Shown in pieces: positions 14,108 through 41,615 of a stretch of DNA of 49,452 bases; position 1 is the first letter of the stretch, and every line of letters starts with the position of its first letter. The notes below the pieces were generated by a model. It was not told the origin of the DNA and searched no databases. It saw only the letters and a program-made list of their open reading frames with translations. Origin of the DNA: a virus (Duplodnaviria; Caudoviricetes); IMG/VR virus record IMGVR_UViG_3300011437_000004, positions 1 to 49,452 of that record. One strand, given 5' to 3'. Made by a program: the position numbers and the translations under genes.

Positions 14108-14171
14108 TCTTTCTTGGACCGCGCTACTTCTGCCTCAACGCGCGCTTGTCGGCTTAACCGAATCCGGCCCT
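14108..14171 (+). repeat. Dispersed repeat, copy A (fills the gap upstream of the portal gene)
   Basis: 14127-14171 is the exact reverse complement of 29166-29210 (45/45) and is similar to 28871-28935 and 41066-41111. Confidence 0.9.
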
Positions 14172-14427
14172 AGTCCCGTACCGTATCATCTTCCCATCCA
14201 TCAAGCACACAGGACCCGCGGAAGCCGCAGCTATCTCCTGGGCAATCAACGATGGGCAAAACACGCCCCTGCTTTCTAACTTCATGCTTGCTAAAAACGG
14301 ATCCCATCAGGCACACTTCCATACCACACTCTGGGCAGGTCATCGCCACGCGTTTCTGGCGCTTCGCTGTTTCGTACTTTCGCCAGTGTGTTCTCGAAAC
14401 TATGTACAGACAGACACTCCTGTTCAT
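14170..14427 (-). CDS. Small Zn-ribbon-like protein
   Basis: 85 aa with CPEC...CPGDSC cysteine pairs. Confidence 0.6.
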   Translation of the reverse strand: MNRSVCLYIVSRTHWRKYETAKRQKRVAMTCPECGMEVCLMGSVFSKHEVRKQGRVLPIVDCPGDSCGFRGSCVLDGWEDDTVRD

Positions 14428-19212: not shown

Positions 19213-19665
19213 GGGTAAATGACACTAAGCGTACGTGTAATTTATGGGATGTGTGGAAACGGGATTTGTGGGAGGGAGGGTATCCCCCCGCGCTTAGCCG
19301 CCGCTCCTGGGGGCCGACGGGGGGTCCGCCGCCTCCCGCGCCCCCCCTCCCGCATCGACGCCGCCCCCCTCCCGCCGCGCGACGCTGGCAGAGCCCGTGT
19401 GCCACGCCCGTGCCGTTTGCGCCATGGCCGTTGCAGCGCGCGCGTTTGTGCCGACGTGGCCGTTTCGACAGCCACTATGCCCTATGCCCGAGCTGCTGCG
19501 TCCGAGCTGCTAGAGTCTACGCCGCGTAGAGTCTATGGCGGTGGCGGTGGCAACGGCAACGGAGATGGGGAAACGGTTAGTTGAACGACCGACCAAGTGC
19601 ACAACCTCAATCCCAAAAAAATCCATTTTTTCCAACAATTGCGCAAATTATTTAGCGCTTTTCTC

Positions 19666-19695: not shown

Positions 19696-19742
19696 CTACA
19701 TCGTACCGTTCTCTAACACTCTCTAACACAAAGGAATTGACA

Positions 19743-22332: not shown

Positions 22333-22364
22333 GGGGCGTACCGTTGCTGGTCGCCCCATCTTTT
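22333..22364 (+). terminator. Probable intrinsic terminator
   Basis: GGGGCG..ACC/GGT..CGCCCC stem followed by ATCTTTT; an upstream A-run suggests bidirectional use. Confidence 0.55.
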
Positions 22365-22376
22365 AGCGCAAATTAT

Positions 22377-22405: not shown

Positions 22406-22469
22406 ACTATTGTGGTAGTCGCGACCTACACAACATCGTAGGCCGCGCTACATCTTGGAGAATTGACCC

Positions 22470-23024: not shown

Positions 23025-23117
23025 GATATTCTCCGCTGCCGTTCTGTTACTATGTATAATTCTGTCCGCTGCCGTGTTGCTGTTCGCGCCCGGCTGCCTT
23101 TAGAAAGGAATTGACCC

Positions 23118-28223: not shown

Positions 28224-28255
28224 GCCCGCCTCAACAACTGAAAAAGGAATTGACC

Positions 28256-30973
28256 ATGAACTACCCGCTAGTGGTCCTCAGCCCGTCCGCCGTTTCCCGC
28301 GACGCCTCCTGCTCCCGCTGTGACCTCGGCATCGCATCCCAACCCACCCTGCACCGCCAATCACTGTGTATTCCACTCCATCGGCACGGCGACTACAAGC
28401 CCTCCTCCATCGCCCTCCTCTGCATCGGCGAGGCTCCCGGCTCTGAAGAAGACGCGCAATGTGCTCCCTTCGTAGGCCCCTCCGGCCAAATCCTCACCGA
28501 CTGGCTGTCCCAATTTGCATCCCTCCCCATCACCATCTACGCCACCAACGCCGTTCGCTGCCGCCTCCCCACCAAGGCCAAACCTCGCCGCCCCATGTTC
28601 GACGCCTGCAATGCGTTCCTGGTCAGTGACCTCAAGCTGCTCCTCAGCGCACACCCCTCCGTCACCCTGCTACTTCTCGGCGCCACCACCGTAGAGTCCC
28701 TCCGTCTCGGCACAATGAAGAAAGACGCATTCCGCCGCCAAGGCCAGCCCGTGCTGATAAACGGCCTAGGCCCGTTCCCCACATATGCCACCTACCACCC
28801 CGCCGCCACCCTCCCCTCCCGCTCCCCCCATCTAGTTCACGCCGTCGCCGACCACTTGTCGCTACTATTCTCTTCCTTGGACCGCGCCGCTTCTGCTCCG
28901 GTAAAGAACTTGTCGGCTGAACCGAGTCCGGCCCTGTTCACACCACCCCGTGCCGTGCCCGTTATAAATGCACTGGCCGACCTGCATGGGCCCGTGCCGT
29001 CTCCCGTCCCGTCTGTGCTCGCTCTCGACATTGAGACATACGGTCTACTCGACACCGAGCCCGTTCAAACGGTCTACCACCCCGTCAAGTCCACGGCCAT
29101 TGACCGCCCCCGTTCACTGCTATCCACCGTCGCCATCGCTTGGCATCAGTACACGGGTCGGGAACAGGGCCGGATTCGGTTAAGCCGACAAGCGCGCGTT
29201 GAGGCAGAAGGCAGTGCGCTCAAAGCCCGCGTGTATGTTTGGTCCAAGCCCGTTGACCGTGCATCTCTGTACCAAGTCCTGCACCGTTTGCGTGCCAACC
29301 ACGGCACGCTGGTGCTCAAGAACGCCCTCTTTGACTTCTCTTACCTCCGTGCGTATCCTGAGTTCCGCGAGGTGCTGTGTCCCCCGTTAGTAATAGAAGA
29401 CGTAGAGGCGTGGAACACGCTGGCCAGTGATGTTCGTCCTGAGCGATCTCTAGAGGCCATCGCCCGTTTGCTGGGCCTGCTGCCTGAGCTTACAGACTCT
29501 AATCCCAAGGCCCGTAAATTTAAGCGATACCCATCAGCCTTCGACGGCGCTGCCCACCGCTACAATGCCACCGATGCACTCGTTACTCTCGCTGCTCGTG
29601 ACATACTGCGCGGGCAGTGCGATCCATTAGCGTTGACAGAGTACGCCCGCCGTTGGTTCAGTGAATCCATCTATTCATTTCTGCACATGCAAGAGGCTGG
29701 CATCTGTGTAGACCGCCGTGCTGTTGCGACCTTGAACGCATCGCTGCTGCTCAGGATGGCTGCCCATGCCAACCGATTCAAAGCGCTCACCGGATGTGCG
29801 CTGGCGGGCACAGGCAGCCGAGATCCGTTGCGAACGTTGGTGGCCAACGCGACCGCCGAGGCGTGCCTGCTGCGTCATCCTCAACTGGCCCGTTCGGATG
29901 TGGGTGGCATCATCAGCACGGGCGAGGACAATATAAAGCTCATTCTGGAACACCTGCCATCCGAGTCCGCTTACTATGAGTCCCTTGGCCTGCTTACTGC
30001 CCACCGTGCGCTGCAGAAAACCGTTGGCACACTGAAGGCGATTGCGTCGCCGGAGTCCAAGCACCGTTCCATCCGTGGCATCGTCTACCCTCAGTGGTAT
30101 CCGTTCCCAGGCGAGTATGGCCGCGCTTCCAATGCGACGGGCGGCGGTACTGTCCAGGGCCGTGCAACCGCAAAGGATCCAGCTCCACAGACGTGGCCGG
30201 AGGAAGTGCATAACTGCGTCAGCTCCCGTCACGGACGCCACGGCGTCGTGCTCATGTGGGACTTATCACAGATAGAGGTACGCCTTGCGGCCATGCTGTC
30301 CCGCGACTCACGCATGATCCAAGAGTACCGCGACGGGGTGGACCGCCATACGATGCGAGCAGTGGAGCTGTTTGGTGCTGATATCATTAGTCACCCACAG
30401 TTCCGTAGAGTCTATAGGCACGCGGGCAAGACGATGAACTTTCTAATCATCTACCGCGGCGGCGCTCGCCAGTTCCGTTTCACATTGCGTCGCGATGTGG
30501 GCGTGGACTTCCCGCTGGAACGCTGCCAAGAGATGATTGCCCTGTCCCGTGCCGCGTATCCTGAGCTGGATGCGTATCAGCAGGCGCTCATACGGCAGGT
30601 GACGCGGGACGGCTTCTTGGTCGAGCCCGTGCTGGGCTTCCGCCGCTGGTTCATCCGGTCCCAAGCGCTCAACGAACACGAATACGAAAGCACCATCGCG
30701 AATTTCCTAGTTCAGTCCACTGCCGCGTTGCTAATGCGCGATGTGCAACGGCGTGTCATTACCATGCTGCCGCCCGGCGCGTGCGTTTTCTTCAACGGCT
30801 ATGACTCGCTTGGAATTGATTGCCTTATAAGAGATTATGACAAAGCGCTAAATTCTTTGCGCATTTGCTTGACGGAATCCGGCTACCTTGCTAGATTACG
30901 GGCAGTGACGGGCGTCCACGATGTACCGATATTGGCCGAAGCCAAGGCTCGTTGCGGCGTCGATCCGAGCTAG
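28256..30973 (+). CDS. polA: Family A DNA polymerase with N-terminal family-4 uracil-DNA glycosylase and 3'-5' exonuclease domains
   Basis: UDG: CSRC, GEAPG..ED...PFVGPSG, TNAVRC, HPAA. Exo: LDIET, NALFD, YNATD. Pol: DLSQIEVR, KTMNFLIIY, VQSTAA, GYDS. Confidence 0.9.
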   Translation: MNYPLVVLSPSAVSRDASCSRCDLGIASQPTLHRQSLCIPLHRHGDYKPSSIALLCIGEAPGSEEDAQCAPFVGPSGQILTDWLSQFASLPITIYATNAVRCRLPTKAKPRRPMFDACNAFLVSDLKLLLSAHPSVTLLLLGATTVESLRLGTMKKDAFRRQGQPVLINGLGPFPTYATYHPAATLPSRSPHLVHAVADHLSLLFSSLDRAASAPVKNLSAEPSPALFTPPRAVPVINALADLHGPVPSPVPSVLALDIETYGLLDTEPVQTVYHPVKSTAIDRPRSLLSTVAIAWHQYTGREQGRIRLSRQARVEAEGSALKARVYVWSKPVDRASLYQVLHRLRANHGTLVLKNALFDFSYLRAYPEFREVLCPPLVIEDVEAWNTLASDVRPERSLEAIARLLGLLPELTDSNPKARKFKRYPSAFDGAAHRYNATDALVTLAARDILRGQCDPLALTEYARRWFSESIYSFLHMQEAGICVDRRAVATLNASLLLRMAAHANRFKALTGCALAGTGSRDPLRTLVANATAEACLLRHPQLARSDVGGIISTGEDNIKLILEHLPSESAYYESLGLLTAHRALQKTVGTLKAIASPESKHRSIRGIVYPQWYPFPGEYGRASNATGGGTVQGRATAKDPAPQTWPEEVHNCVSSRHGRHGVVLMWDLSQIEVRLAAMLSRDSRMIQEYRDGVDRHTMRAVELFGADIISHPQFRRVYRHAGKTMNFLIIYRGGARQFRFTLRRDVGVDFPLERCQEMIALSRAAYPELDAYQQALIRQVTRDGFLVEPVLGFRRWFIRSQALNEHEYESTIANFLVQSTAALLMRDVQRRVITMLPPGACVFFNGYDSLGIDCLIRDYDKALNSLRICLTESGYLARLRAVTGVHDVPILAEAKARCGVDPS
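28871..28942 (+). repeat. Dispersed repeat, copy C (UDG-exo linker of the polymerase)
   Basis: CTTGGACCGCGC..CTTCTGC...CTTGTCGGCTGAACCGAGTCCGGCCCT aligns with copy A over ~65 bp. Confidence 0.85.
29162..29210 (-). repeat. Dispersed repeat, copy B (inverted, inside the exonuclease domain)
   Basis: 29166-29210 is the exact reverse complement of 14127-14171. Confidence 0.9.
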
Positions 30974-30975
30974 TT

Positions 30976-31452
30976 ATGCCGATTGATCCGAGCCGAGTGG
31001 TGATTACAAGGACGCGAGGCCGGTCGCCGCATATGCGGGGCACTGGGCCAGGCATGATGCGCACGCCCAAAACAGATGGGACTGAAGCCTATATGCTGCC
31101 AGGACTGGAGAATCTAGGGTCCGTGCTGAGGGAGACCCGCGTGGCCCGTGCTATCCCGCAGCGCATACTGGCTGACACCGCGGGGATGCCTGTATCCGTG
31201 CTCTCATTGGTCGAACAGGGATCGCGCCGCCTCACCCCTCGTATGTATACGTTGCTGTGCCAAACGCTGGATCTGCCGCCCGAGGTGCCCATCCTGATTA
31301 CGTTGGCCGTGGGGCCCGATTGGCCCGGCTTGCGTACTATTCAAAAGCAGTTGGTAAAAAAGTATATAGCGGCGGGGCTGGCGGTGGAGACGATGGCGTC
31401 CCACCCCGTCCGTCGCAAACACCCCAACAAACCCCGCAATGAGTTTTATTGA
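30976..31452 (+). CDS. XRE/Cro-C1 HTH transcriptional regulator
   Basis: LRETRVARAIPQRILADTAGMPVSVLSLVEQG. Confidence 0.75.
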   Translation: MPIDPSRVVITRTRGRSPHMRGTGPGMMRTPKTDGTEAYMLPGLENLGSVLRETRVARAIPQRILADTAGMPVSVLSLVEQGSRRLTPRMYTLLCQTLDLPPEVPILITLAVGPDWPGLRTIQKQLVKKYIAAGLAVETMASHPVRRKHPNKPRNEFY

Positions 31453-31500
31453 AAAGAAGAAGTGCTCTGCGTCAATGTGTCGCCGCGTTGCCGATGTTGA

Positions 31501-32172
31501 GTGTGTTGTTCTGAGCGCCAGCAGCCGCGATATAGACCTCTTATGAAAGAGCTGCCCCGTACAGTCACGATGCTCATAGATACGCGGGAGAAGACCCCGT
31601 TTGCTTTCCCTGACATCATCGCAGTGGAGTGGGGCGGCAAGGACTACCCGGTGACCGTACGATCCGAGAGGGCGAAGCTGGACTGCGGTGACTACACACT
31701 TAAAAGCTATGAGCACATTGCGGCGCTGGAACGTAAGAGTTCACTTGACGGCGAGCTGTCCGACAATATTACGACGGCGGACCGTGCCCGTTTTGTTCGT
31801 GCTCTGTCTCGGTTGGCGGGCAGCTGCCTGTACCCGTATCTGATGCTGGAGAGCGGGGGCGGGGCGTGGTGGACCGAGGGAAAAACCAATAGCGATGCCG
31901 GCATGACGATGGATCATCTGGGCCAATTGGTGTCGCAGCTAAGGCTGAACTTGATTTTCAACGCCAGCAGGCCCACGACCGTACACGCAAAGCGGCGCAT
32001 GGGCGAGTTCGTACTGCGGCTGATGATCGGCCACATGCTGGTGCTGAGTAACGAAGGAAAGGAATTGACCAATGTCAGAACACCCGACCAACCTCAACGG
32101 GCAAGAAACTGTCCCTCCCGTTACGGTGGCAAGCCCGTCGACCCCAAGCCGCTGGCGTCCGGCAACAGCTAA
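31501..32172 (+). CDS. ERCC4/XPF-family nuclease (start may be 31543)
   Basis: IDTREK, LDCGDY and ERKS motifs. Confidence 0.85.
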   Translation: MCCSERQQPRYRPLMKELPRTVTMLIDTREKTPFAFPDIIAVEWGGKDYPVTVRSERAKLDCGDYTLKSYEHIAALERKSSLDGELSDNITTADRARFVRALSRLAGSCLYPYLMLESGGGAWWTEGKTNSDAGMTMDHLGQLVSQLRLNLIFNASRPTTVHAKRRMGEFVLRLMIGHMLVLSNEGKELTNVRTPDQPQRARNCPSRYGGKPVDPKPLASGNS

Positions 32173-33415
32173 TCAGCTAGCGCCGTTGGGTTTCGTGCTG
32201 ACGCCGGCCCCGGATGCCCTGATGACATCCCCGTGCCCCACCGTGCCGTGCGATCGACCTGAACTGAAGCACCTGTTCAAGCACAGCCTACCAGTCATTA
32301 ACAACCCGCCTGTGCGGTCGTCCGCCGTCAAGACATACCACGAATGCACTCGCAGGTGGTTCTATGAGTACGGGCTGGGTCTTGTGCCGTTGGGCTATTG
32401 GTCCCCCGGTATGCGACAAGGCACGCTGTTCCACAAGGCGATGGAGTGGCTGTCCAAAGGCATGAGCACGGAACAAATCCACAATCACTTGCACGAATAC
32501 CAAAACAGCGTTGCGCTGCGGTTGATGGCCGCTCAGACACCCGATGGCCGTTTGCCTGACGGCACGTTTACGGAGACGCGGCTGGACCAATTAGAGGTAA
32601 TGACACATAAAGCTGCGGCGATGGCTGAGTACATCCGTGCCCGTGATGCGCTGCCCAAAGATATCATACCGCTGGCCGTTGAGAAACACACGGCGTGCGT
32701 GCTTTCCACTCCTTCGGGACGATCGGTTACGCTGGCGGGCCGTATTGACGTGCTAGGGCAGTCGGCCAACGACTCCAACGAGATCTGGCTGCTGGACTAC
32801 AAAACTACGGGCGAGTCCCCGTCCCTTGCTGCAAGGGCCTTGGAGTTCGATGCTCAGATACACCAGCACCGTTTGCTGGCGATGGCCGCATTCCCCGACA
32901 AGCATGTAATGGGGTCGTATCATCTGTTGGTCAAACCTGCTGGGATTAAGTATTGCCCAAAGACCAAAGACAAGGGCGGCATCCAAAGTTACTTTACCCG
33001 CGTGCTCGAATGGTACGCGCAGCGGGAGCTGGAGGGTCAGGCGGTGCCCGAAAAGGCACCCATCGCAACGTCAAAGATTACCTATACTGCGTCCGTGCCC
33101 GAGCCCGACATCCTTGACCGCATCATAGAGGTTTCACACCAGCCGCGCATGCATGGTACAAACGGGCACGAAGACATTCGACGCATGTTCCCCCGCGTAG
33201 CCAACCGTTACGTGTGCGGCGGCATTGCGGGACGCAAGGCGTGTCCGTTTCTAAAGATGTGCAACACCGAAGCGCCACACGAATGGGCGGCTTTGATTCG
33301 AGAAGAGGGAATGCAGCACGCTGCCCTGTATGAACGCTGCGACCCGTGGGTCAAGGCCCGCGGCGGCGACGACTCCGGCGACTCCGACGAACCCGAAAGC
33401 ATTGATGGTGAATAG
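32072..33415 (+). CDS. PD-(D/E)XK exonuclease (Cas4/RecB-like)
   Basis: SSAVKTYHEC, GTLFH, VEK, GRID, DYKT and C-terminal Cys cluster; ATG after AAGGAATTGAC. Confidence 0.8.
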   Translation: MSEHPTNLNGQETVPPVTVASPSTPSRWRPATANQLAPLGFVLTPAPDALMTSPCPTVPCDRPELKHLFKHSLPVINNPPVRSSAVKTYHECTRRWFYEYGLGLVPLGYWSPGMRQGTLFHKAMEWLSKGMSTEQIHNHLHEYQNSVALRLMAAQTPDGRLPDGTFTETRLDQLEVMTHKAAAMAEYIRARDALPKDIIPLAVEKHTACVLSTPSGRSVTLAGRIDVLGQSANDSNEIWLLDYKTTGESPSLAARALEFDAQIHQHRLLAMAAFPDKHVMGSYHLLVKPAGIKYCPKTKDKGGIQSYFTRVLEWYAQRELEGQAVPEKAPIATSKITYTASVPEPDILDRIIEVSHQPRMHGTNGHEDIRRMFPRVANRYVCGGIAGRKACPFLKMCNTEAPHEWAALIREEGMQHAALYERCDPWVKARGGDDSGDSDEPESIDGE

Positions 33416-33441
33416 TTCGTTTAACAAAAAGGAATTGACCA

Positions 33442-34449
33442 ATGACTCAAACAATCACTACCGGCAGCGCGCCCGCTGCACCCTCCGTGCGACCAGCTCT
33501 GCCTCCCCCCCAGCCCCGTCCACAACCGCTGCCGCAGCCGCCGTTGGCACAGCCACAACCGTCGATGCTGGACCCGTATGCATCACAGTTTGGGGAGGGT
33601 GTGCGAGTATTCGGACCGCCTCCCGCCGGACGTCTTAGAGTCTATCTTCGGGCCAAGGTCGGTGGCGGCAAAACCCACTTCTGCCTCTCGGCGCCGCGAT
33701 CGCTGGTGCTGGACTTTGAGAACAAAGCGCTGGCCATTCCATATCGCGGACCTGGCACATCTGTGTATTACTTTTCAGCATGGGAACGCTATGAAGAACT
33801 GCTGAACCGTGTCATTGCGGACGGGCTGGCCGGACGCCGCTACTTCGACACTGTGGTCTTTGACCCCATGCCATCCGTGGTCTCGCTGGTGCGGGCGTCG
33901 CTGACTGCCCAGTACCGTGCCATGAAGTACTTGGACGCCCACGAAGACATAACTAACTATGGACAAAAAGGGTCGGGGTGGGACATTGTCAACGGCAAAA
34001 TCAACAGACTTCTAACCGATGTGTACAATGCGGGGTATGGGTGGATCGCTACATCTCACATCATGCCCGTTTGGAAAAAGGGGTCCGATGGCCGCGACAC
34101 TGCCGTCCAGGATACCGTGCTCAATGCGGGCGTGGAGCGAAACCTATACAAAGATGCAGACTACACCGGCATCATTCTGAACGAAACGGACGTAACCACC
34201 ACGGGCGGCGGGGTTACAGGGACGCAGATGATACAGGGCCGGCCCGTGTCCATCCGCTCTCCAGTCAAGACCGAAATACGAAAACGGTTCACGCTAGGCT
34301 TCTTGCCCTCAGACCCAATGATACCTGTGCGGGTGTCGGTGCCGCTGAGCACCAACCCCATTGACATAACAGATCAACACGGAATGGATTTGTTTCACAG
34401 AGTCTACGATGACAGCGTTACAGCGTTTGTAGCTTCGTCACGGAGTTAA
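33442..34449 (+). CDS. Sak4-like/AAA_24 recombination ATPase
   Basis: GGGKT, LVLDFE, DTVVFD; located between exonuclease and SSB-like gene. Confidence 0.75.
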   Translation: MTQTITTGSAPAAPSVRPALPPPQPRPQPLPQPPLAQPQPSMLDPYASQFGEGVRVFGPPPAGRLRVYLRAKVGGGKTHFCLSAPRSLVLDFENKALAIPYRGPGTSVYYFSAWERYEELLNRVIADGLAGRRYFDTVVFDPMPSVVSLVRASLTAQYRAMKYLDAHEDITNYGQKGSGWDIVNGKINRLLTDVYNAGYGWIATSHIMPVWKKGSDGRDTAVQDTVLNAGVERNLYKDADYTGIILNETDVTTTGGGVTGTQMIQGRPVSIRSPVKTEIRKRFTLGFLPSDPMIPVRVSVPLSTNPIDITDQHGMDLFHRVYDDSVTAFVASSRS

Positions 34450-34489
34450 GTTAACCCGCTCTTACAAGAGCACAACAGAGGAGTGTTCT

Positions 34490-35020
34490 ATGCCAGTAAT
34501 ATTTGACCAAAACGCATTTATCGCAGCGGCGGCCCAACGCCACGAAGTCCTGGCCCAGGGCAAACGGGACGCCGTGCAATCATGGACGCCGCCTGAGGGC
34601 ACCTACATCGGCGAGTTGTTGGGCGGTCAGGTCGGCGTGATTACCAACGCAACGGGCGCATCGGACCCGGCCATCTGGCTGACGTTCCGCATTGGTGACG
34701 CCGGTCCCCACGAAGGCCGCACCGTTCGCATCATGTTCACGCTGGGCGAGATGGGCGCTGCCGGATTCGTGCGTGCTGCTAATGTAATTTTGGACAGCCA
34801 AGTGCCGGACGATCCGATTGCAGTAGCCAAAGCTATCCTGTCCCACTGTGAGCGTGGCGAGTGGTACGTGCTGGCGGCAGTGACCCGCAAGAAGGATCCA
34901 ACCCAGCGCAACGTGTACATCAACAAGAAGTGCGATATGCTGCCCCCTGGCAGCGAAGGCGAGCATCAGACTCTTACAGCCAACGACGTAGGCGCCATGC
35001 CCGCGGGCGTTCTCAAGTAG
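34490..35020 (+). CDS. Probable ssDNA-binding protein (DUF669/gp2.5-like)
   Basis: WTPPEGTY motif, OB-like beta pattern, synteny with Sak4; GAGGAG RBS. Confidence 0.55.
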
Positions 35021-35041
35021 CGTCCGCGGCTGACACGGAAT

Positions 35042-35182
35042 GGTCGCCCCAGGCATGCAGTGTTTGTCAATTCCGCTGTGTGTCCTGCGGGCGACCGGCC
35101 CTTGCTTCTTTTCTCCTCAGGGCGCGGGGGCGCTTCGGCCACCTTATGCTTGACAGCCGAGCGCTCCCCGCCGAGGAGCAAG
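35042..35182 (+). ncRNA. Two-hairpin structured RNA upstream of csrA (candidate sRNA)
   Basis: Hairpin 35042-35096 (~21 bp with G-U pairs, loop TTTGTCAATTC) and a second hairpin CTCCTC..TCGGC/GCCGA..GAGGAG. Confidence 0.55.
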
Positions 35183-35205
35183 TACACAATAACGAAAGGA
35201 TTCGT

Positions 35206-35397
35206 ATGTTAGTTCTGTCCCGGAAACGCAATGAAAGCATCCTCATCGACGGCGATATCAAAGTAGTGGTGCTTGGAATCCGCGGAGACAAAGTACGGCT
35301 GGGCATCACGGCCCCCCGCTCCATTCCCGTTGTTCGCAAGGAAATCACTGACGTCATGGCCGCCAAACCGAGGCCGGAAGGAAACATGCAACAATGA
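35206..35397 (+). CDS. csrA: Carbon storage regulator CsrA/RsmA
   Basis: [47 protein letters not shown], 63 aa. Confidence 0.92.
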
Positions 35398-36242
35398 CAA
35401 CAAAGCCAATAAGTGAAACGGGCCTGAGTCTATACGTAAAGCTGAACCAACTGCTGAACGATCCGTTGGAGTCCCACATCCGTATTAATGCTTTTGTGGA
35501 CGCTCTCATTGGTGCAACGCAGATTACCAACGTAATGCTGGTGCTGCCCGCCGAGCACGTACCCCCCCTCACCATCAGACATGCCGTGGACCGCATCAGA
35601 GACACGGGCCGAACCGTCACATACGGACGCAAAGCGTTCCTCAACAATGGCGCTGAATACAAGGAATCCCCCAGCAACCCCTTTGATCCCGGATTCTGGC
35701 AGAACGCTATATACCGGGTGCTCACAGAGGCTGCTCTGTTCGGGTGTACCGAAACGCTGTTGGATGCCGAGCCCGGCGCCAAGCACTCTACCTGCGGTTG
35801 GCTGCATGCCATCAGCACGGGCTACTCACTACCTTCCGATCGGTTCGAGCGACTAAAGCATGCCATCCTGCGCGCTATTGAGTTTTCATGCGACATAGAT
35901 GACATCTTCCCTGGCTGGTCTGCAAAGGAAAACAACTATGTGAACGCGACCCGCCATTTAGGCAACCGCATTATATTTACACCTTACGGTACGCCTGCCG
36001 GCCCCATCCCCGGCCTGCATCCTCCCCACCACAAGCCATCCATACATACGTGGGCCCTGAACGTGGACGTTGCGGCGGATCCAGCCAACAATGTAATCTC
36101 CGTCGCTGACGCCCTCCGATGGCGGTGGGACCTCTGCGAAGCCGCGTACCCAACACTGACGCCAAGCGGTCGCATCGTGTTCGTACGCTTTTCCCGCATC
36201 GTACCTGTCTTGAAGGCCTTCACCGCCCTGGCCCTCGATTAA
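35394..36242 (+). CDS. Hypothetical protein
   Basis: 282 aa, ATGA-coupled to csrA. Confidence 0.7.
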
Positions 36243-36270
36243 CCCACAACCCGCAAACTGGAGACCATTC

Positions 36271-36942
36271 ATGACCACAGAAAATATTGCATATCGCAAC
36301 TCAGAGCAGCTAAAGGCCGACACTCTGGCGCAATTGGACGCCCACCGGCGGGTCAACGAATTGGTTCGTGGAACATATTGGGACGGTCATCGCGGATGCG
36401 CGATCGGCTGCATGGCACACAGCGGCGACAGCCCGCATCCGGAGCTGGCCAACCGGCTTGGCATACCGGAGCAAATCCTGCATCTCATAGATGTCACATT
36501 CGAGCGGCTGCCTGCCAACTGGCTAGATTGGCCGACACGTGTGATGTCGGCAATACCGGTCGGAGCCGATCTGTCTCTCGCATGGCCGCGGATGGCCATA
36601 TGGATACTGGCCGACCCGGTGCATGGCGCGCGCCAACACGCTATCGGCGCTGGTGTGACCGTGATAGATGCGGTGGTGGCTCTATACAGTCTCGTGCTCG
36701 TCGGAGACATACCGACCCCAGATGAGTGGCATGCGGCGGCGAGTGCGGCGGATGCGGCGAGTGTGGCGGCGGATGCGGCGGATGCGGCGAGTGTGGCGGC
36801 GAGTGTGGCGGCGAGTGCGGCGGCGTGGGCTGCGGCCTGGGCGGCGGCGTGGGCTGCGGCGAGTGCCACATTTTGGGCTACGCTATCCGACGAAATTGTC
36901 CGCGTGTGTGAAGCGTGCCCGGTAACCGGAGACCGCTCATGA
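36271..36942 (+). CDS. Hypothetical phage protein with Ala/Trp repeats
   Basis: GCAIGC motif; AAWAAAW tail encoded by GCGGCGAGTG/GCGGCGGAT repeats at ~36733-36866. Confidence 0.75.
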   Translation: MTTENIAYRNSEQLKADTLAQLDAHRRVNELVRGTYWDGHRGCAIGCMAHSGDSPHPELANRLGIPEQILHLIDVTFERLPANWLDWPTRVMSAIPVGADLSLAWPRMAIWILADPVHGARQHAIGAGVTVIDAVVALYSLVLVGDIPTPDEWHAAASAADAASVAADAADAASVAASVAASAAAWAAAWAAAWAAASATFWATLSDEIVRVCEACPVTGDRS

Positions 36943-37121
36943 GCGAGCAGCGTCCGTTTAGCTTGAGCGAAGAACGTGAGATTGAGTCTGCAATCAACAG
37001 AACAGACAGTTGGGTCGAGGCACTAGACCACACTATAGGCATCCAAACCACAATGGAACTAGCTCTTGGATTCAAGTCCAGATTCGTTTCGTTTGGGAAG
37101 TGTGGTGTCTATGAAACTTGA
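36939..37121 (+). CDS. Small hypothetical protein
   Basis: MSEQRPF start, ATGA-coupled, GGAG RBS. Confidence 0.5.
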   Translation: MSEQRPFSLSEEREIESAINRTDSWVEALDHTIGIQTTMELALGFKSRFVSFGKCGVYET

Positions 37122-37992
37122 CGAAGTCATAACTGGCAACTGCATCGAGTGGATGGTACATGCGCCTCTTAGCTTCCAAGCTGACTTGGTGTTTGCGGAC
37201 CCACCATTCAACATTGGCTACGATTACGACCAGCACAAAGACAACATGCCGCCCGCTGAGTATATGGGTTGGTGCCGCCAATGGATGCTGGCGGCGTACA
37301 GTGTACTGCGTCCCGGCGGTTCCTTCTGGCTGGCCATCGGGGATGAGTACGCCGCGGAACTTAAGGTGCGCGCCCAGGAGTCAGGATTCACGTTCCGTAG
37401 CTGGGTCATCTGGCACTACACTTTCGGCGTGGCCCGCCAGAGCAGTTTCTCCCGCAGCCACACGCACCTGTTATATTTTGTAAAAGACGGAACGCCAACG
37501 AAACCTATTACGTGGAACGCTGATGCCATCCGCGTACCGTCCGCACGCATGACGACCTACGGGGACCCCCGCCAACGGCCTGGCGGCAAGGTGCCAGACA
37601 ACACATGGATTCTGCGTCCTGCCGACGTTCCCGACGCCTTCGCGCCTGACAGCGATACATGGTGTGTGTCCCGCGTGGCGGGCACCTTCGGCGAGCGCTG
37701 CCGTTGGCACCCATGCCAGATGCCCGAGCAGGTCCTTGGTCGCATCATCCGCGCCTGCACCAACCCCGGTGACATTGTGCTGGACCCGTTCGCCGGCAGC
37801 GGCGCCGCGCTTGCGGTTGCCAAAAAGCTGGACCGCCAATATGTGGGCATCGAAATCTCGCCCGACTACTGCACGGGCATCAAAAAAAGACTAGAGTCTA
37901 TCAACGCAGGCGACCCCCTGCACGGATCCGAATCGTTTGTCAGCGGCCCCATGCGTGCCCGCACCCGCTACTCAAAAGGAAACAACCCATGA
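37111..37992 (+). CDS. Orphan beta-class N6A/N4C DNA methyltransferase
   Basis: DPPF catalytic motif precedes LDPFAGSG SAM-binding motif; HPCQMP; no adjacent restriction enzyme recognised. Confidence 0.9.
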   Translation: MKLDEVITGNCIEWMVHAPLSFQADLVFADPPFNIGYDYDQHKDNMPPAEYMGWCRQWMLAAYSVLRPGGSFWLAIGDEYAAELKVRAQESGFTFRSWVIWHYTFGVARQSSFSRSHTHLLYFVKDGTPTKPITWNADAIRVPSARMTTYGDPRQRPGGKVPDNTWILRPADVPDAFAPDSDTWCVSRVAGTFGERCRWHPCQMPEQVLGRIIRACTNPGDIVLDPFAGSGAALAVAKKLDRQYVGIEISPDYCTGIKKRLESINAGDPLHGSESFVSGPMRARTRYSKGNNP

Positions 37993-38345
37993 CACTTGAA
38001 CAAAAACTGAGGGAGGTAGAGTCGATCGCACGGAAAGCACACTACAATAGCATGTCGCTGGCCGGATTCGTGTTTGCCTTGTCTACAGTAATGATTGTTT
38101 CCTGTATTGTAATGATCTTCAGAGATCCAAAGCCCGCCCCCAAGGCGACGCCGGACGTCCCCCGCATCGCCGGTGCAGCATTCGCGGCCATCGAAACCCA
38201 GAACCAGATTCGCGCCCGATGCCGCAAGCAGGCCCACTCAGCCAGTGACTACGACCACGAGATGGCAACCCGCGAAGTTGACGCAATGGCTGAACTGCAC
38301 GCAATGGCCATGCAGTCCCTACAAGATGCAATGGAGTCAAAATGA
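37989..38345 (+). CDS. Membrane-anchored hypothetical protein
   Basis: 118 aa with one hydrophobic helix. Confidence 0.65.
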   Translation: MTLEQKLREVESIARKAHYNSMSLAGFVFALSTVMIVSCIVMIFRDPKPAPKATPDVPRIAGAAFAAIETQNQIRARCRKQAHSASDYDHEMATREVDAMAELHAMAMQSLQDAMESK

Positions 38346-38749
38346 GCGAAACACAATACAAATGCTGCTGGTGCGGTGGGGGGCTTTCGGTGCCTCACGT
38401 CCTCAAGAACAAAAGACACGCGGTTTGTCAAAACGATTGGTGTTTCTCGGTTGGTCCATTCTGCGGGACGGACGAAGAGGCGCTCCGCGCGATGAATGAC
38501 GGGCCGAAGCGGAAGGAAGAGTTTGTCCGATACGAATTCGAGAAGTGCCACTGGCTGCGTGTCTCTGACATCGTAGCGGTGTGCAAAATGGATAATCACC
38601 CGCAGTGGTCCCACGAAGTTAGGCTGCGTGACAAGTCGCGGCTATACGTTTCACGGGATTGCAAGGATGCGCTCTTTGCAGCGCTCCCCGACGGCCTAGA
38701 GTCACAATGTGACAAGGCCCCAGGCAACGATTGGGTGGAGGTAGAATAA
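38342..38749 (+). CDS. Lar-like (restriction alleviation) Zn-finger protein
   Basis: KCCWCGG...VCQNDWC..VGPFCGTDEEALRAMN resembles the Lar pattern. Confidence 0.45.
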   Translation: MSETQYKCCWCGGGLSVPHVLKNKRHAVCQNDWCFSVGPFCGTDEEALRAMNDGPKRKEEFVRYEFEKCHWLRVSDIVAVCKMDNHPQWSHEVRLRDKSRLYVSRDCKDALFAALPDGLESQCDKAPGNDWVEVE

Positions 38750-38820
38750 TGGACATCGTTACGGTACTTTTAATCGTGCTTCTGGTCATAGTAGTTCTCC
38801 TCCTGATAAGGTGGATCTGA
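38749..38820 (+). CDS. 23-aa hydrophobic peptide MDIVTVLLIVLLVIVVLLLIRWI
   Basis: Manual translation; TAATG coupling; GGAGGT RBS. Confidence 0.6.
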   Translation: MDIVTVLLIVLLVIVVLLLIRWI

Positions 38821-38891
38821 TGATCTATGTGTGGATTTGGTGGCTGATAGAAGTGTGGGACAAGATGGTCACAATCGGTGGTGAGGGTTAG
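38820..38891 (+). CDS. 23-aa Trp-rich peptide MIYVWIWWLIEVWDKMVTIGGEG
   Basis: Manual translation; TGATG coupling; AAGGTGG RBS. Confidence 0.5.
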   Translation: MIYVWIWWLIEVWDKMVTIGGEG

Positions 38892-38911
38892 TTCTCTTTT
38901 AGGAGGAACCT

Positions 38912-38986
38912 ATGAGTTGGTATTACTGGTTTTTCGACTTCGTAGAAGGTATCGTCCCGCTCATTATCTTTGGGATGGAGGGCTGA
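38912..38986 (+). CDS. 24-aa aromatic peptide MSWYYWFFDFVEGIVPLIIFGMEG
   Basis: Manual translation; AGGAGG RBS 5 nt upstream. Confidence 0.6.
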   Translation: MSWYYWFFDFVEGIVPLIIFGMEG

Positions 38987-38988
38987 CG

Positions 38989-39105
38989 ATGTTTCCTCTG
39001 TCGCGCGCGGAGACTGTGGTCCTGCGGGTAGCCGTGGTGCTTTGTGCACTCCTTTCGGCCGCGGCCATCGTGTTCGTGGGCGCGGTCTCCGTCACGGCAG
39101 GGTAG
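38989..39105 (+). CDS. 38-aa single-TM peptide
   Basis: MFPLSRAETVVLRVAVVLCALLSAAAIVFVGAVSVTAG; GGAGG RBS. Confidence 0.6.
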   Translation: MFPLSRAETVVLRVAVVLCALLSAAAIVFVGAVSVTAG

Positions 39106-39187
39106 TAGGGCCGGAGCCTGTCGCAAATGACAGTCTCTTTCGGGGGGCTGCGGAGAGTTACACTCCGGAGCAGGCTCCGGCCACCTA
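39106..39187 (+). ncRNA. ~80-nt multibranch structured RNA (not a canonical tRNA)
   Basis: 12-bp closing stem GGCCGGAGCCTG/CAGGCTCCGGCC enclosing a TTCG-loop hairpin and a CGGAG/CTCCG hairpin. Confidence 0.5.
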
Positions 39188-39248
39188 TACTCACAACTAG
39201 CAGCGGGTGGTCCGTTGCTACAATAACAAAATAAGAAAGGTAAAAACA

Positions 39249-39662
39249 ATGGCAGTGTCAATTGAAACACCCGGCGTGTACAACGCCAACACCGACCACA
39301 TCGATATGTCTGTGGTTACTCCCGAAAGCCTGCTTCCCAAGTATGAGGCCAACTACAACGAGTTGGACAGCATCAAGGATAAGATCGCTCTCTACGCCGG
39401 AAAAATACAATCGGCCATCAGCAGCGCCCAAGGCAACTTCAGCTATGTACAGGGTGGCCGACAAGCGGACGATGACCGTGGACAGGATTTAACCCAAAGG
39501 TTCCGTGAGCCGTGGGCCGGCGCTCGCGCCATAAAGATGCGCATCTGGGACATCCGACAGCTTTGCAGCACGCTGCTCTCCATGACTCCCTACCCCGGCA
39601 ACACCCCCGAGGACATCCAAGGCACTATGGAACTCCAACAACAGAACTGGGTCAACCCGTGA
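39249..39662 (+). CDS. Hypothetical protein
   Basis: Start MAVSIET after AAGGT. Confidence 0.7.
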   Translation: MAVSIETPGVYNANTDHIDMSVVTPESLLPKYEANYNELDSIKDKIALYAGKIQSAISSAQGNFSYVQGGRQADDDRGQDLTQRFREPWAGARAIKMRIWDIRQLCSTLLSMTPYPGNTPEDIQGTMELQQQNWVNP

Positions 39663-40027
39663 CGTCGGAAGTATTCGGAGCGGTGTTCATCTTCATCCTT
39701 CTTCTGGCGGCATGTACCCCTGTGTTTTTATGTATTAGGGGGTTGTACCGTGCAGAAAAGGAAGAAGAAAAAACATGGAAGAGTTACAGTACAGCAGTCG
39801 ATAAGTGCGTGTTACTCTTAAGAAAAGGATACCAACCTATGGAAAGCAGCCCCGACCAAACCCAGGCGCCACTTGTGAAATCGTCATGTGATCCGACAGC
39901 CGTCAACACCGCCGCCATTGAAGATCTGATCCATGCGGTTGGAGCTTTGCAAAAACGACTGCGGCACGTCGAGTCTTTTCTGGGTCTGCCCGACGCTGCC
40001 GTTGAGCAAGAGAACCCGCAAGAGTAG
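39659..40027 (+). CDS. Membrane-anchored protein with coiled coil
   Basis: GTGA-coupled start; hydrophobic N-terminus containing LLLAAC. Confidence 0.6.
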   Translation: MTSEVFGAVFIFILLLAACTPVFLCIRGLYRAEKEEEKTWKSYSTAVDKCVLLLRKGYQPMESSPDQTQAPLVKSSCDPTAVNTAAIEDLIHAVGALQKRLRHVESFLGLPDAAVEQENPQE

Positions 40028-40085: not shown

Positions 40086-40940
40086 ATGCAAAACGGGTTC
40101 ATCATTACAGAGAAGCCATGCCTCCAGCCGGATGGCGCTAATGGCGTTCTTGTCAAAGGGGCGGTCTATGCCGCCAATCATGTAAGCCTCGGGGCCACAG
40201 CCCTCAGAGGCAACGCGGACATGCTGACATTCCACTGCGATGGCGTCTGCCTGTCCATCCCCACCGACTGTATTGAGTCAATAGAGTTGCAAGCGCCGGG
40301 TACTACGGTCCGCTGCGTCTACCCATGCCCGATCTCCGAAGAGGAAGCCCAGCGATCCGCTGACGTCGCCGCCTACAAAGCCCAGTATGGTGTCCCGCCA
40401 TACGCCAAGACCGCAGCCCAGGCCGCAGCCCACGCCGCCGCCCAGGCCGCAGCCCAGCTTGCACTCCAGAACGCAAGCAACAATCCCAATCAATTCGGGC
40501 AGTTCGGGTATGGGAACAACCCTCCGGGCTTCCAAGGCCAGCAGGGCTTCCAAAACCCCTACAACCCCAACCAACCCACACATTTTAGCGGCAACAATGC
40601 CCCGTATGGTCGCCCCAGCAACCAAGGCTACGGCCAGCAAGGTCAAGGCAACCAAGGGTACGGGTACGGTCGCGGTGGTAATCGGCCCGGCAACTATCCG
40701 GGGTCCGTCACCCCCAACAACCCGAACCCACAGGTTCAGCCCAACCAGGGTGGCCAATGGGTCCAAGGCAACCAGGGCCACGCCCACGCACCAACACCCC
40801 CGACGATGACGCCCGAGCAACTGCAGCTGTGGCAGTCGCAGCAAACGCAGCAGGGGCAGCAGCAGGGACCGCTAACGCCGCCGTTGGCGCCGGCGGGGCT
40901 TAGGAGCCATCCGGTGAGCAACCCATTGAGCAACCCGTAG
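40086..40940 (+). CDS. Protein with Gln/Asn/Gly/Pro-rich low-complexity C-terminus
   Basis: 284 aa, GGGAG RBS; repeated NQGYG/QGNQG units. Confidence 0.75.
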   Translation: MQNGFIITEKPCLQPDGANGVLVKGAVYAANHVSLGATALRGNADMLTFHCDGVCLSIPTDCIESIELQAPGTTVRCVYPCPISEEEAQRSADVAAYKAQYGVPPYAKTAAQAAAHAAAQAAAQLALQNASNNPNQFGQFGYGNNPPGFQGQQGFQNPYNPNQPTHFSGNNAPYGRPSNQGYGQQGQGNQGYGYGRGGNRPGNYPGSVTPNNPNPQVQPNQGGQWVQGNQGHAHAPTPPTMTPEQLQLWQSQQTQQGQQQGPLTPPLAPAGLRSHPVSNPLSNP

Positions 40941-41009: not shown

Positions 41010-41615
41010 ATGACCAAAACACGCTTCAGCCCACTACCAAAAGACGCGGTCTTTTTGCAGCTCGCCTTCTGCCCCAGCGCGCGCTTGTCGGCTAAACCGC
41101 TGTCCGGCCCTGTTCACAAAGCAGTGGCCAGTCTCATGGGACTGAAGCCGTCCGCGTATGATTCCACCCCGTTGTCGTTTGTGAGGGGCCGTGGTCGTGA
41201 GGTCAGCCGTTGGCGTGCGTACTACGGTGACAGCAACTCTGTTGGGGGGGGCGGGGTGCGGTTGCCGCCGTATGTCAAAGCGGACTTCACGCCGATGGCC
41301 GTGGCCGTTATGCTGGCCGCTGATAAACGACTCTCTCTGATGCTGATGCCGACCGGACCGTTGGGAAACCCCCTGGCTTCCATCACTCGCTACGAACGAT
41401 ACTGCGCGTTTCAAATCCTGTGCAACGAATCCTTGTTTGACCCGGCCGTGTGGGGCAGCCACTCCGTGCTGGGATGGGCCGCAGCCTCAAAGCTGGGCCT
41501 CCGCTGGATCATGGACCGACCGGCGAGTGAATCGCTGGTGCGACTGGTGCATAACCTCAAGGATGGAACCCGACATGGCCAGCCCGTTAAGCATGGTGCG
41601 GGACCGTTACCGTGA
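41010..41615 (+). CDS. Hypothetical protein
   Basis: 201 aa upstream of the helicase-like gene. Confidence 0.55.
   Translation: MTKTRFSPLPKDAVFLQLAFCPSARLSAKPLSGPVHKAVASLMGLKPSAYDSTPLSFVRGRGREVSRWRAYYGDSNSVGGGGVRLPPYVKADFTPMAVAVMLAADKRLSLMLMPTGPLGNPLASITRYERYCAFQILCNESLFDPAVWGSHSVLGWAAASKLGLRWIMDRPASESLVRLVHNLKDGTRHGQPVKHGAGPLP
41066..41118 (+). repeat. Dispersed repeat, copy D
   Basis: CTTCTGCCCCAGCGCGCGCTTGTCGGCTAAACCGCTGTCCGGCCCTGTTCACA. Confidence 0.85.

Follow-up and report, generated by a model that had tools for sequence, protein, structure and literature searches.

Since 2011 no explanation has been found for the start-associated sequences (SAS) of cluster K mycobacteriophages, which papers from 2024-2025 still call ill-defined (PMC11373665, PMC12699233). 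One reverse copy, away from gene starts, is described for each of the K1 phages Anaya, Adephagia, Angelica, and CrimD (PMC3203893). RNA loops that act at ribosome-binding sites are known from the C4 RNA of P1 and P7, which is cut from a longer transcript and occludes such sites with its loops (PMC5320573). E. coli CsrA represses its own leader (PMC7652899), and in B. subtilis CsrA promotes SR1-ahrC pairing (PMC6546359). Phage sRNAs, as summarized in one section of a review, act mainly on host genes or lysogeny (PMC12197685). Here we describe an uncultured phage in which a tag shared by six gene starts has its sole reverse copy in the predicted loop of a hairpin. An earlier note, made from the sequence alone, had proposed that this hairpin is an antisense RNA acting together with the phage's own CsrA.

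Genome and host context

The window is the whole phage record IMGVR_UViG_3300011437_000004 (49,452 nucleotides), a complete genome of about 49 kb with 123-nt direct terminal repeats at its ends. A plus-strand gene arm (about 19,700-43,600) encodes an AAA_5 ATPase, a UDG-PolA fusion, an HTH protein, ERCC4 and PD-(D/E)XK nucleases, a Sak4-like protein, CsrA, and a methylase, and the terminase gene lies on the minus strand. A domain search of 48 ORFs gave no integrase match. The host is probably a member of Planctomycetota, based on the CsrA relatives found in genomes (mostly Planctomycetota among the best 80 of 138), which are the sole host evidence. The hairpin region is also present within one contig of a freshwater-sediment sequencing run.

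Several further features were seen along the genome. A dispersed repeat of 30-58 nt (70-94% identity) occurs at 14127-14184, 28909-28939, 29153-29210 (reverse), and 41066-41110; two of its copies are inverted, 222 nt apart, within the DNA polymerase gene. At 38749-39105, four ORFs of just 23-38 aa follow one another; they encode hydrophobic products, have SD-like sites, and may give small membrane peptides. The 12-nt tandem arrays at 36727-36864 and 40403-40468 encode alanine-rich repeats and are mutually complementary, and their length differs in the twin contig L268.

Start tags on six non-structural genes

The tags and the genes that they precede are as follows.

19730..19741, plus strand: start tag 1, before the AAA_5 ATPase gene (19743); complementary to the loop over 11 nt
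22460..22467, plus strand: start tag 2 (8-mer only), before a 184-aa ORF (22470)
23104..23115, plus strand: start tag 3, before a 154-aa ORF (23118)
28243..28254, plus strand: start tag 4, before the UDG-DNA polymerase A fusion gene (28256)
32058..32069, plus strand: start tag 5, before the PD-(D/E)XK exonuclease gene (32072)
33428..33439, plus strand: start tag 6, before the Sak4-like AAA_24 gene (33442)

The 8-mer GAATTGAC has six plus-strand copies (19734, 22460, 23108, 28247, 32062, and 33432) and one minus-strand copy (35066-35073). Shuffled genomes held a mean of 1.10 copies and a maximum of 4, and none of 100 reached 7. All six plus-strand copies end 1-3 nt 5' of an ATG, and all of the tagged genes are non-structural genes of the plus-strand replication arm. 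Five of the tags read AAAGGAATTGAC, the copy at 22460 being the 8-mer only. Beyond the SD core, ATTGAC follows AAGGA in five copies and GAATTGAC is kept in six. The set thus agrees with SAS in its asymmetric motif near starts, its restriction to non-structural genes, its single orientation with at most one reverse copy, and its conservation beyond the SD.

Pairs of TTGACA and -10 elements, read by eye, lie 5' of three tagged genes (19666, 22377, and 28195). As a separate observation, 19639-19658, 22364-22376, and 30842-30866 share a GCGCAAAT-type imperfect palindrome directly 5' of TTGAC -35 boxes, which is a candidate operator of early promoters, ESAS-like by position. The tag-plus-ATG pattern elsewhere was set aside, as about 1900 viral stretches match it, close to a rough chance estimate; G001, the sole record with two tag-plus-ATG copies, has no reverse copy.

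The reverse copy fills the predicted loop of hairpin 1

The reverse copy lies between a DUF669-like gene and csrA, in a region with the following features.

34490..35020, plus strand: DUF669-like gene (ESM Atlas 0.95, DUF669 clusters), untagged, with the hairpins in its 3' flank
35042..35096, plus strand: hairpin 1, predicted 21 bp (14 GC, 4 AU, 3 GU)
35063..35074, plus strand: 11-nt loop (35063-35073) and closing C; within it, the tag core has its exact complement at 35066-35074
35101..35182, no strand assigned: hairpin 2, which folds equally on both strands (-44.8 / -44.6) and for which no specific target was found
35192..35205, plus strand: csrA ribosome-binding hairpin with an AAGGAU loop, a candidate CsrA autoregulation site
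35206..35397, plus strand: csrA (63 aa), PF02599 (E 1.4e-22; 79.8 bits against a cutoff of 27)

The product of the DUF669-like gene, which has no Pfam match, presumably plays an SSB-like role. The hairpin of about 21 bp that the earlier note had seen 5' of csrA was recovered at 35042-35096, with a loop predicted to be unpaired at 0.87-1.0 (35063-35073) and a regional fold that none of 200 shuffles equaled (z = -5.4). We likewise found the plus-strand preference that had been read from its G-U pairs, as the predicted energies are -36.6 kcal/mol for the plus strand and -29.4 kcal/mol for the minus strand, about 7 kcal/mol in favor of plus. The genome-wide expectation for the anti-box 8-mer in any long-hairpin loop is 0.0011-0.0013, or 0.007 over five registers, given 118 possible 8-mer start positions in such loops and a test devised after the match was seen.

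We considered tRNA and Rfam families as the identity of the hairpin region and rejected both, as there was no match (Rfam at the gathering score or at E <= 10). In the DNA contigs of eight sequencing runs the hairpins showed no variant where they were covered, with four of the runs barely covering them; no RNA run was among the matches listed. A scan of 30000-40000 found no promoter-like site next to hairpin 1, so the hairpin RNA would come from the replication-module mRNA, either as a segment of it or as a processing product.

Predicted pairing with gene starts

The claim that the loop is antisense to six starts stands for the 8-mer (six of six) and narrows to five of six for the 9-nt match, since the copy at 22460 holds only the 8-mer; the 11-nt match at the AAA gene was found as described. 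The arrangement has what an sRNA-type seed offers, a predicted accessible loop with 8-11 nt of complementarity to six starts. By duplex energy of loop 1 against 56 hand-picked starts, five tagged genes rank 1-5 and the 8-mer gene 10th. With accessibility counted for the whole 35021-35205 RNA, the six tagged starts give modest predicted energies (-4.5 to -8.3 kcal/mol). They then rank 1, 2, 4, about 9-10, and 12 among the 56 starts; like scores are reached by untagged starts through other parts of the RNA.

A 9-nt match of hairpin 2 to the start at 38806-38814, put forward as possibly a second target, is present in the sequence. Loop 2 alone places this start third among the 56; with accessibility it drops out of the top 16. 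The match is probably chance. We rejected hairpin 2 as a second seed, as it has neither strand bias nor a specific target.

Relatives in the phage's own lineage

Neither Sak4 nor terminase retrieved close relatives in IMG/VR, the DUF669-like protein retrieved only this phage, and annotated phages held nothing close. Metagenomes yielded two near-identical contigs. The sole close sequence, a 99% twin, shows no difference across 35021-35205 or at the four tags checked; beyond it, Sak4 identity does not exceed 43%. To look further out, we used a polymerase-domain profile (best 80 of 270) plus L272, L274, and L367, giving 83 clade loci. Of these, 57 had a Sak4 match, and we excluded 20 (13 truncated, 3 mis-called, 3 duplicates, and 1 other gene), leaving 37 Sak4-DUF669 relatives, many of them near-duplicates.

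The loop is specific to this phage's tag, because it matched no start in the 37 syntenic relatives. Single tag copies occurred in only 3 of 80 distant clade loci. None of the 80 clade loci had a private tag of its own (at least four starts) with a copy in a loop: a start 8-mer was repeated in 10, an antisense copy was present in 7, and 0 had a copy in a loop. When three starts sufficed, the counts were 51, 35, and 1, the last a generic SD. Structure at this place is another matter. With near-duplicates removed (six of the 37) and 25 shuffles each, 16 of 31 relatives have a strong fold 3' of the DUF669-like stop at z <= -3 and 21 at z <= -2, often a hairpin with a pyrimidine tail, and the tag is absent from them. 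Because strong structure is common in relatives, a hairpin at this place is expected, and the tag-matching loop is the unusual part.

Unpaired pyrimidine tracts after the SSB-like gene in 5 of the 37 relatives were considered as covariation and rejected as generic anti-SD runs; they are complementary to 3-7 own starts (best L274, 7 starts), lie outside long-hairpin loops, and match up to 6 starts of other phages. In distant relatives, the same position has tRNA-like RNAs with long extra stems directly 3' of the DUF669-like gene (L274:18298-18378, and L483 after 17739) and ordinary tRNAs in L473 and L535. In G002, a 47-kb phage represented by L448-L450 (pieces that overlap by 200 nt), the 9-mer CCCCGACAG occurs 52 times on both strands, mostly within genes.

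A parallel in cluster K mycobacteriophages

We screened 164 phage loci of at least 10 kb (3.0 Mb, mostly partial genomes) blind for the same layout. A repeated start 8-mer was found at 31 loci, an antisense copy at 18, and a copy in a long-hairpin loop at 3: this phage, Anaya, and Pixie. The Pixie match was rejected as support, as it lies within the primase gene. In Anaya, the predicted fold is an intergenic plus-strand hairpin whose 10-nt loop contains the reverse SAS.

The Anaya hairpin region is found in 150 phage records, from which we sampled 14 across the identity range and added Anaya and Pixie. The exact loop 10-mer is present in 7 of these 16 phages (predicted 0.80-0.91 unpaired); in 3, a pyrimidine loop allows partial pairing (-15.6 to -20.6, against -22.3 kcal/mol), and 6 have other loops. 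In ten comparable hairpins, which are related sequences set against the structure taken from Anaya, the stem covaries, with 94.6% pairing and two-sided changes at 6 of 17 pairs. Five of the nine loop-lacking phages were searched genome-wide, and each keeps 17-20 SAS; the same holds for Pixie and TM4. Thus, in cluster K the SAS are invariant while the loop varies, and the loop is not needed to retain SAS. No reverse copy was found in the compared parts of TM4 or in 49.9 of the 56.7 kb of Microbacterium phage AnnaSerena. A conserved multi-hairpin non-coding region lies near the right end of cluster K genomes (L269:39780-39960 and L352-L365; the 150 records); no Rfam family reaches threshold there, and some records annotate a hypothetical ORF across it.

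A proposed loop-seed antisense RNA and its strongest rival

Our tentative best explanation, which we hold as quite possible though short of probable, is that a loop-seed antisense RNA from the 3' untranslated region of the SSB-like gene damps translation of the tagged genes. Six non-structural genes carry a private tag across the SD-to-ATG spacer, and the predicted open loop likely pairs over 8-11 nt with these tags, which would block ribosome loading. The hairpin would be made within, or processed from, the replication-module mRNA. As that transcript accumulates, so would the hairpin, and the resulting negative feedback, in cis or in trans, would act on the early and replication genes; the untagged SSB-like gene and csrA would escape repression. 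The tag, its position, its mirror copy, and the gene identities are observed; the fold and the pairing are predicted. The low chance expectation of the loop match (0.001-0.007), the tag count and placement, the plus-strand G-U bias, the duplex ranking of the tagged starts, the specificity of the loop for this phage's tag, the outcome of the blind screen, the Anaya parallel with its covarying stem, and the C4 precedent speak for this reading. Against it speak that the sole close relative is a 99% twin, that the exact loop is missing from 9 of the 16 sampled cluster K phages, that none of 80 clade loci pairs a tag with a loop copy, that relatives often have strong folds at this place without a tag, that the accessibility-weighted interactions are modest, and that no promoter-like site adjoins the hairpin. 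The putative antisense RNA of the earlier note survives as plausible, with outside support from cluster K.

The strongest rival, which we rate as less likely though a real possibility, holds that the tag is a favored ribosome-binding site or protein site, that hairpin 1 is a terminator, a processing site, or an mRNA stabilizer, and that the loop match is chance or a relic. The strong folds that 16 of 31 relatives have 3' of the DUF669-like gene, a U-rich run 3' of hairpin 1 at about 35102-35113, and the persistence of cluster K SAS without the loop are all consistent with it. Hairpin 1, however, departs from an intrinsic terminator (short GC stem, 3-8 nt loop, adjacent U-run): with its 21-bp stem, 11-nt loop, and offset U-run, it drew no terminator call in the scan of 30000-40000. 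The small chance expectation and the repetition of the layout in Anaya also argue against this rival. The two roles of hairpin 1 are not exclusive, and partial termination at it may occur alongside an antisense role.

csrA as a probable separate neighbor

The identification of csrA was borne out by its PF02599 match. We judge it improbable that CsrA and the loop RNA act jointly on the six leaders, with CsrA binding AAGGA and promoting pairing by analogy with SR1/ahrC (PMC6546359). This partnership would fit the place of csrA directly 3' of the hairpins, the AAGGA in five of six tags, correctly reported earlier, and an ANGGA at 35035-35039 that adjoins hairpin 1. AAGGA, however, also precedes 8 of 50 untagged starts (ANGGA, 12 of 50), and it is therefore this phage's ordinary Shine-Dalgarno; we saw no sign that CsrA would target the tagged leaders in particular. 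Nor do the six leaders fit the pattern expected of a CsrA regulon, GGA in hairpin loops with enrichment over other leaders; they fold weakly (-1.1 to -8.4 kcal/mol), and only two (23118 and 33442) have the SD in or at a small predicted hairpin. The loop and CsrA would also compete for the same GGA.

csrA is absent from all 83 clade loci (7-22 kb per locus), and none of 27 other phage csrA loci has an upstream 8-mer complementary to more than two starts, a comparison in which this phage scored three starts by the same crude gene caller. Among 119 viral loci that have the anti-box ahead of a CsrA-like start, none encodes CsrA (20-kb loci were covered for genomes G001-G005). CsrA co-repression of the tagged leaders, as first proposed, is thus unsupported. 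We also rejected a CsrB-like sponge, as 35021-35208 holds 3 GGA rather than many GGA hairpins and has no Rfam match. The phage CsrA more likely binds its own leader than the six tagged leaders, even though the GGA of the csrA leader is only 0.39 unpaired in a long-context fold, and csrA is probably a separate, lineage-specific neighbor of the tag/loop pair that represses its own leader.

Protein sites and a minus-strand ORF

We give little credence to the idea that a phage protein recognizes the tag, either in DNA (stoperator-like) or in RNA, the seventh copy being an inverted operator or a minus-strand hairpin that shows the tag as a decoy. The minus strand does fold with the tag in an 11-nt loop (-29.4), a domain search placed an HTH gene at 30952-31452, and cluster A phages are described as having asymmetric, oriented stoperators (PMC4351075). 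Against this, the fixed 1-3 nt to the ATG and the included SD point to translation, the G-U pairs favor the plus strand, and 30000-40000 holds no minus-strand promoter-like site. It is very improbable that the reverse copy is the start tag of a minus-strand ORF (35056-34580, 158 aa): its 9-mer lies 5' of the ATG, but at 9 nt rather than 1-3 nt and without the upstream AAA, and the ORF shadows the DUF669-like gene, is one of 14 antisense ORFs of at least 130 aa in the arm, and has a best Atlas score of 0.85, a low recognition.

Comparison with known systems

The phage protein is a true PF02599 CsrA, and its gene resembles E. coli csrA in that the SD sits in a hairpin with an ARGGAU loop (PMC7652899), although the leader here lacks the invariant ACA of the SELEX consensus given there. 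Compared with CsrB/C, the RNA here has 3 GGA rather than 13-22. csrA-associated TldR loci also place csrA beside a non-coding RNA, but those described are chromosomal (PMC13418256); we rejected a TldR linkage, as the 48 ORFs scanned gave no TnpB/TldR or flagellin match.

The likeness to the SAS/ESAS of cluster K (PMC3203893) and Microbacterium cluster EF (PMC7302621) lies in an asymmetric SD-containing motif near the ATG, conserved beyond rRNA pairing, confined to non-structural genes, and in one orientation with a single reverse copy, as far as these systems are described. ESAS of Adephagia contain promoters, and three tagged genes here follow sigma70-like promoters. The tag here is unrelated in sequence to the cluster K SAS, is 8-12 nt long with 6 rather than 11-19 copies, and lies 1-3 nt rather than 3-7 nt from the ATG, so it differs from the strict SAS (13-bp consensus, 11-19 copies). 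The 17-bp inverted ESAS repeat was not found in this phage, and the probable Planctomycetota host sets it apart from SAS phages. A reverse SAS as a hairpin loop is absent from the descriptions accessible in PMC3203893 and PMC7302621, and our literature search, thin for subscription journals, found no antisense loop proposed for start tags.

We regard it as conceivable, with more doubt than conviction, that phages of unrelated phyla brake early-gene sets by one mirror-loop RNA, the K1 reverse SAS being the same device. Equally conjectural within that reading, a loop from the tail of a replication mRNA would serve as a feedback brake, and the loop would be the missing SAS trans factor. The mirror loop offers a concrete mechanism for SAS that can be put to the test now in K1 phages grown on M. 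smegmatis; were it true, phages would control sets of their own genes through multi-target antisense regulons built on a portable tag/loop pair.

With no Rfam match and no three-stem fold, the RNA here is not a C4 family member. It has one loop and six scattered targets in an apparently lytic genome, whereas C4 has two loops on an immunity transcript. In its exposed loop that would pair with short sites, it nevertheless resembles C4, the closest working precedent among the systems compared (PMC5320573).
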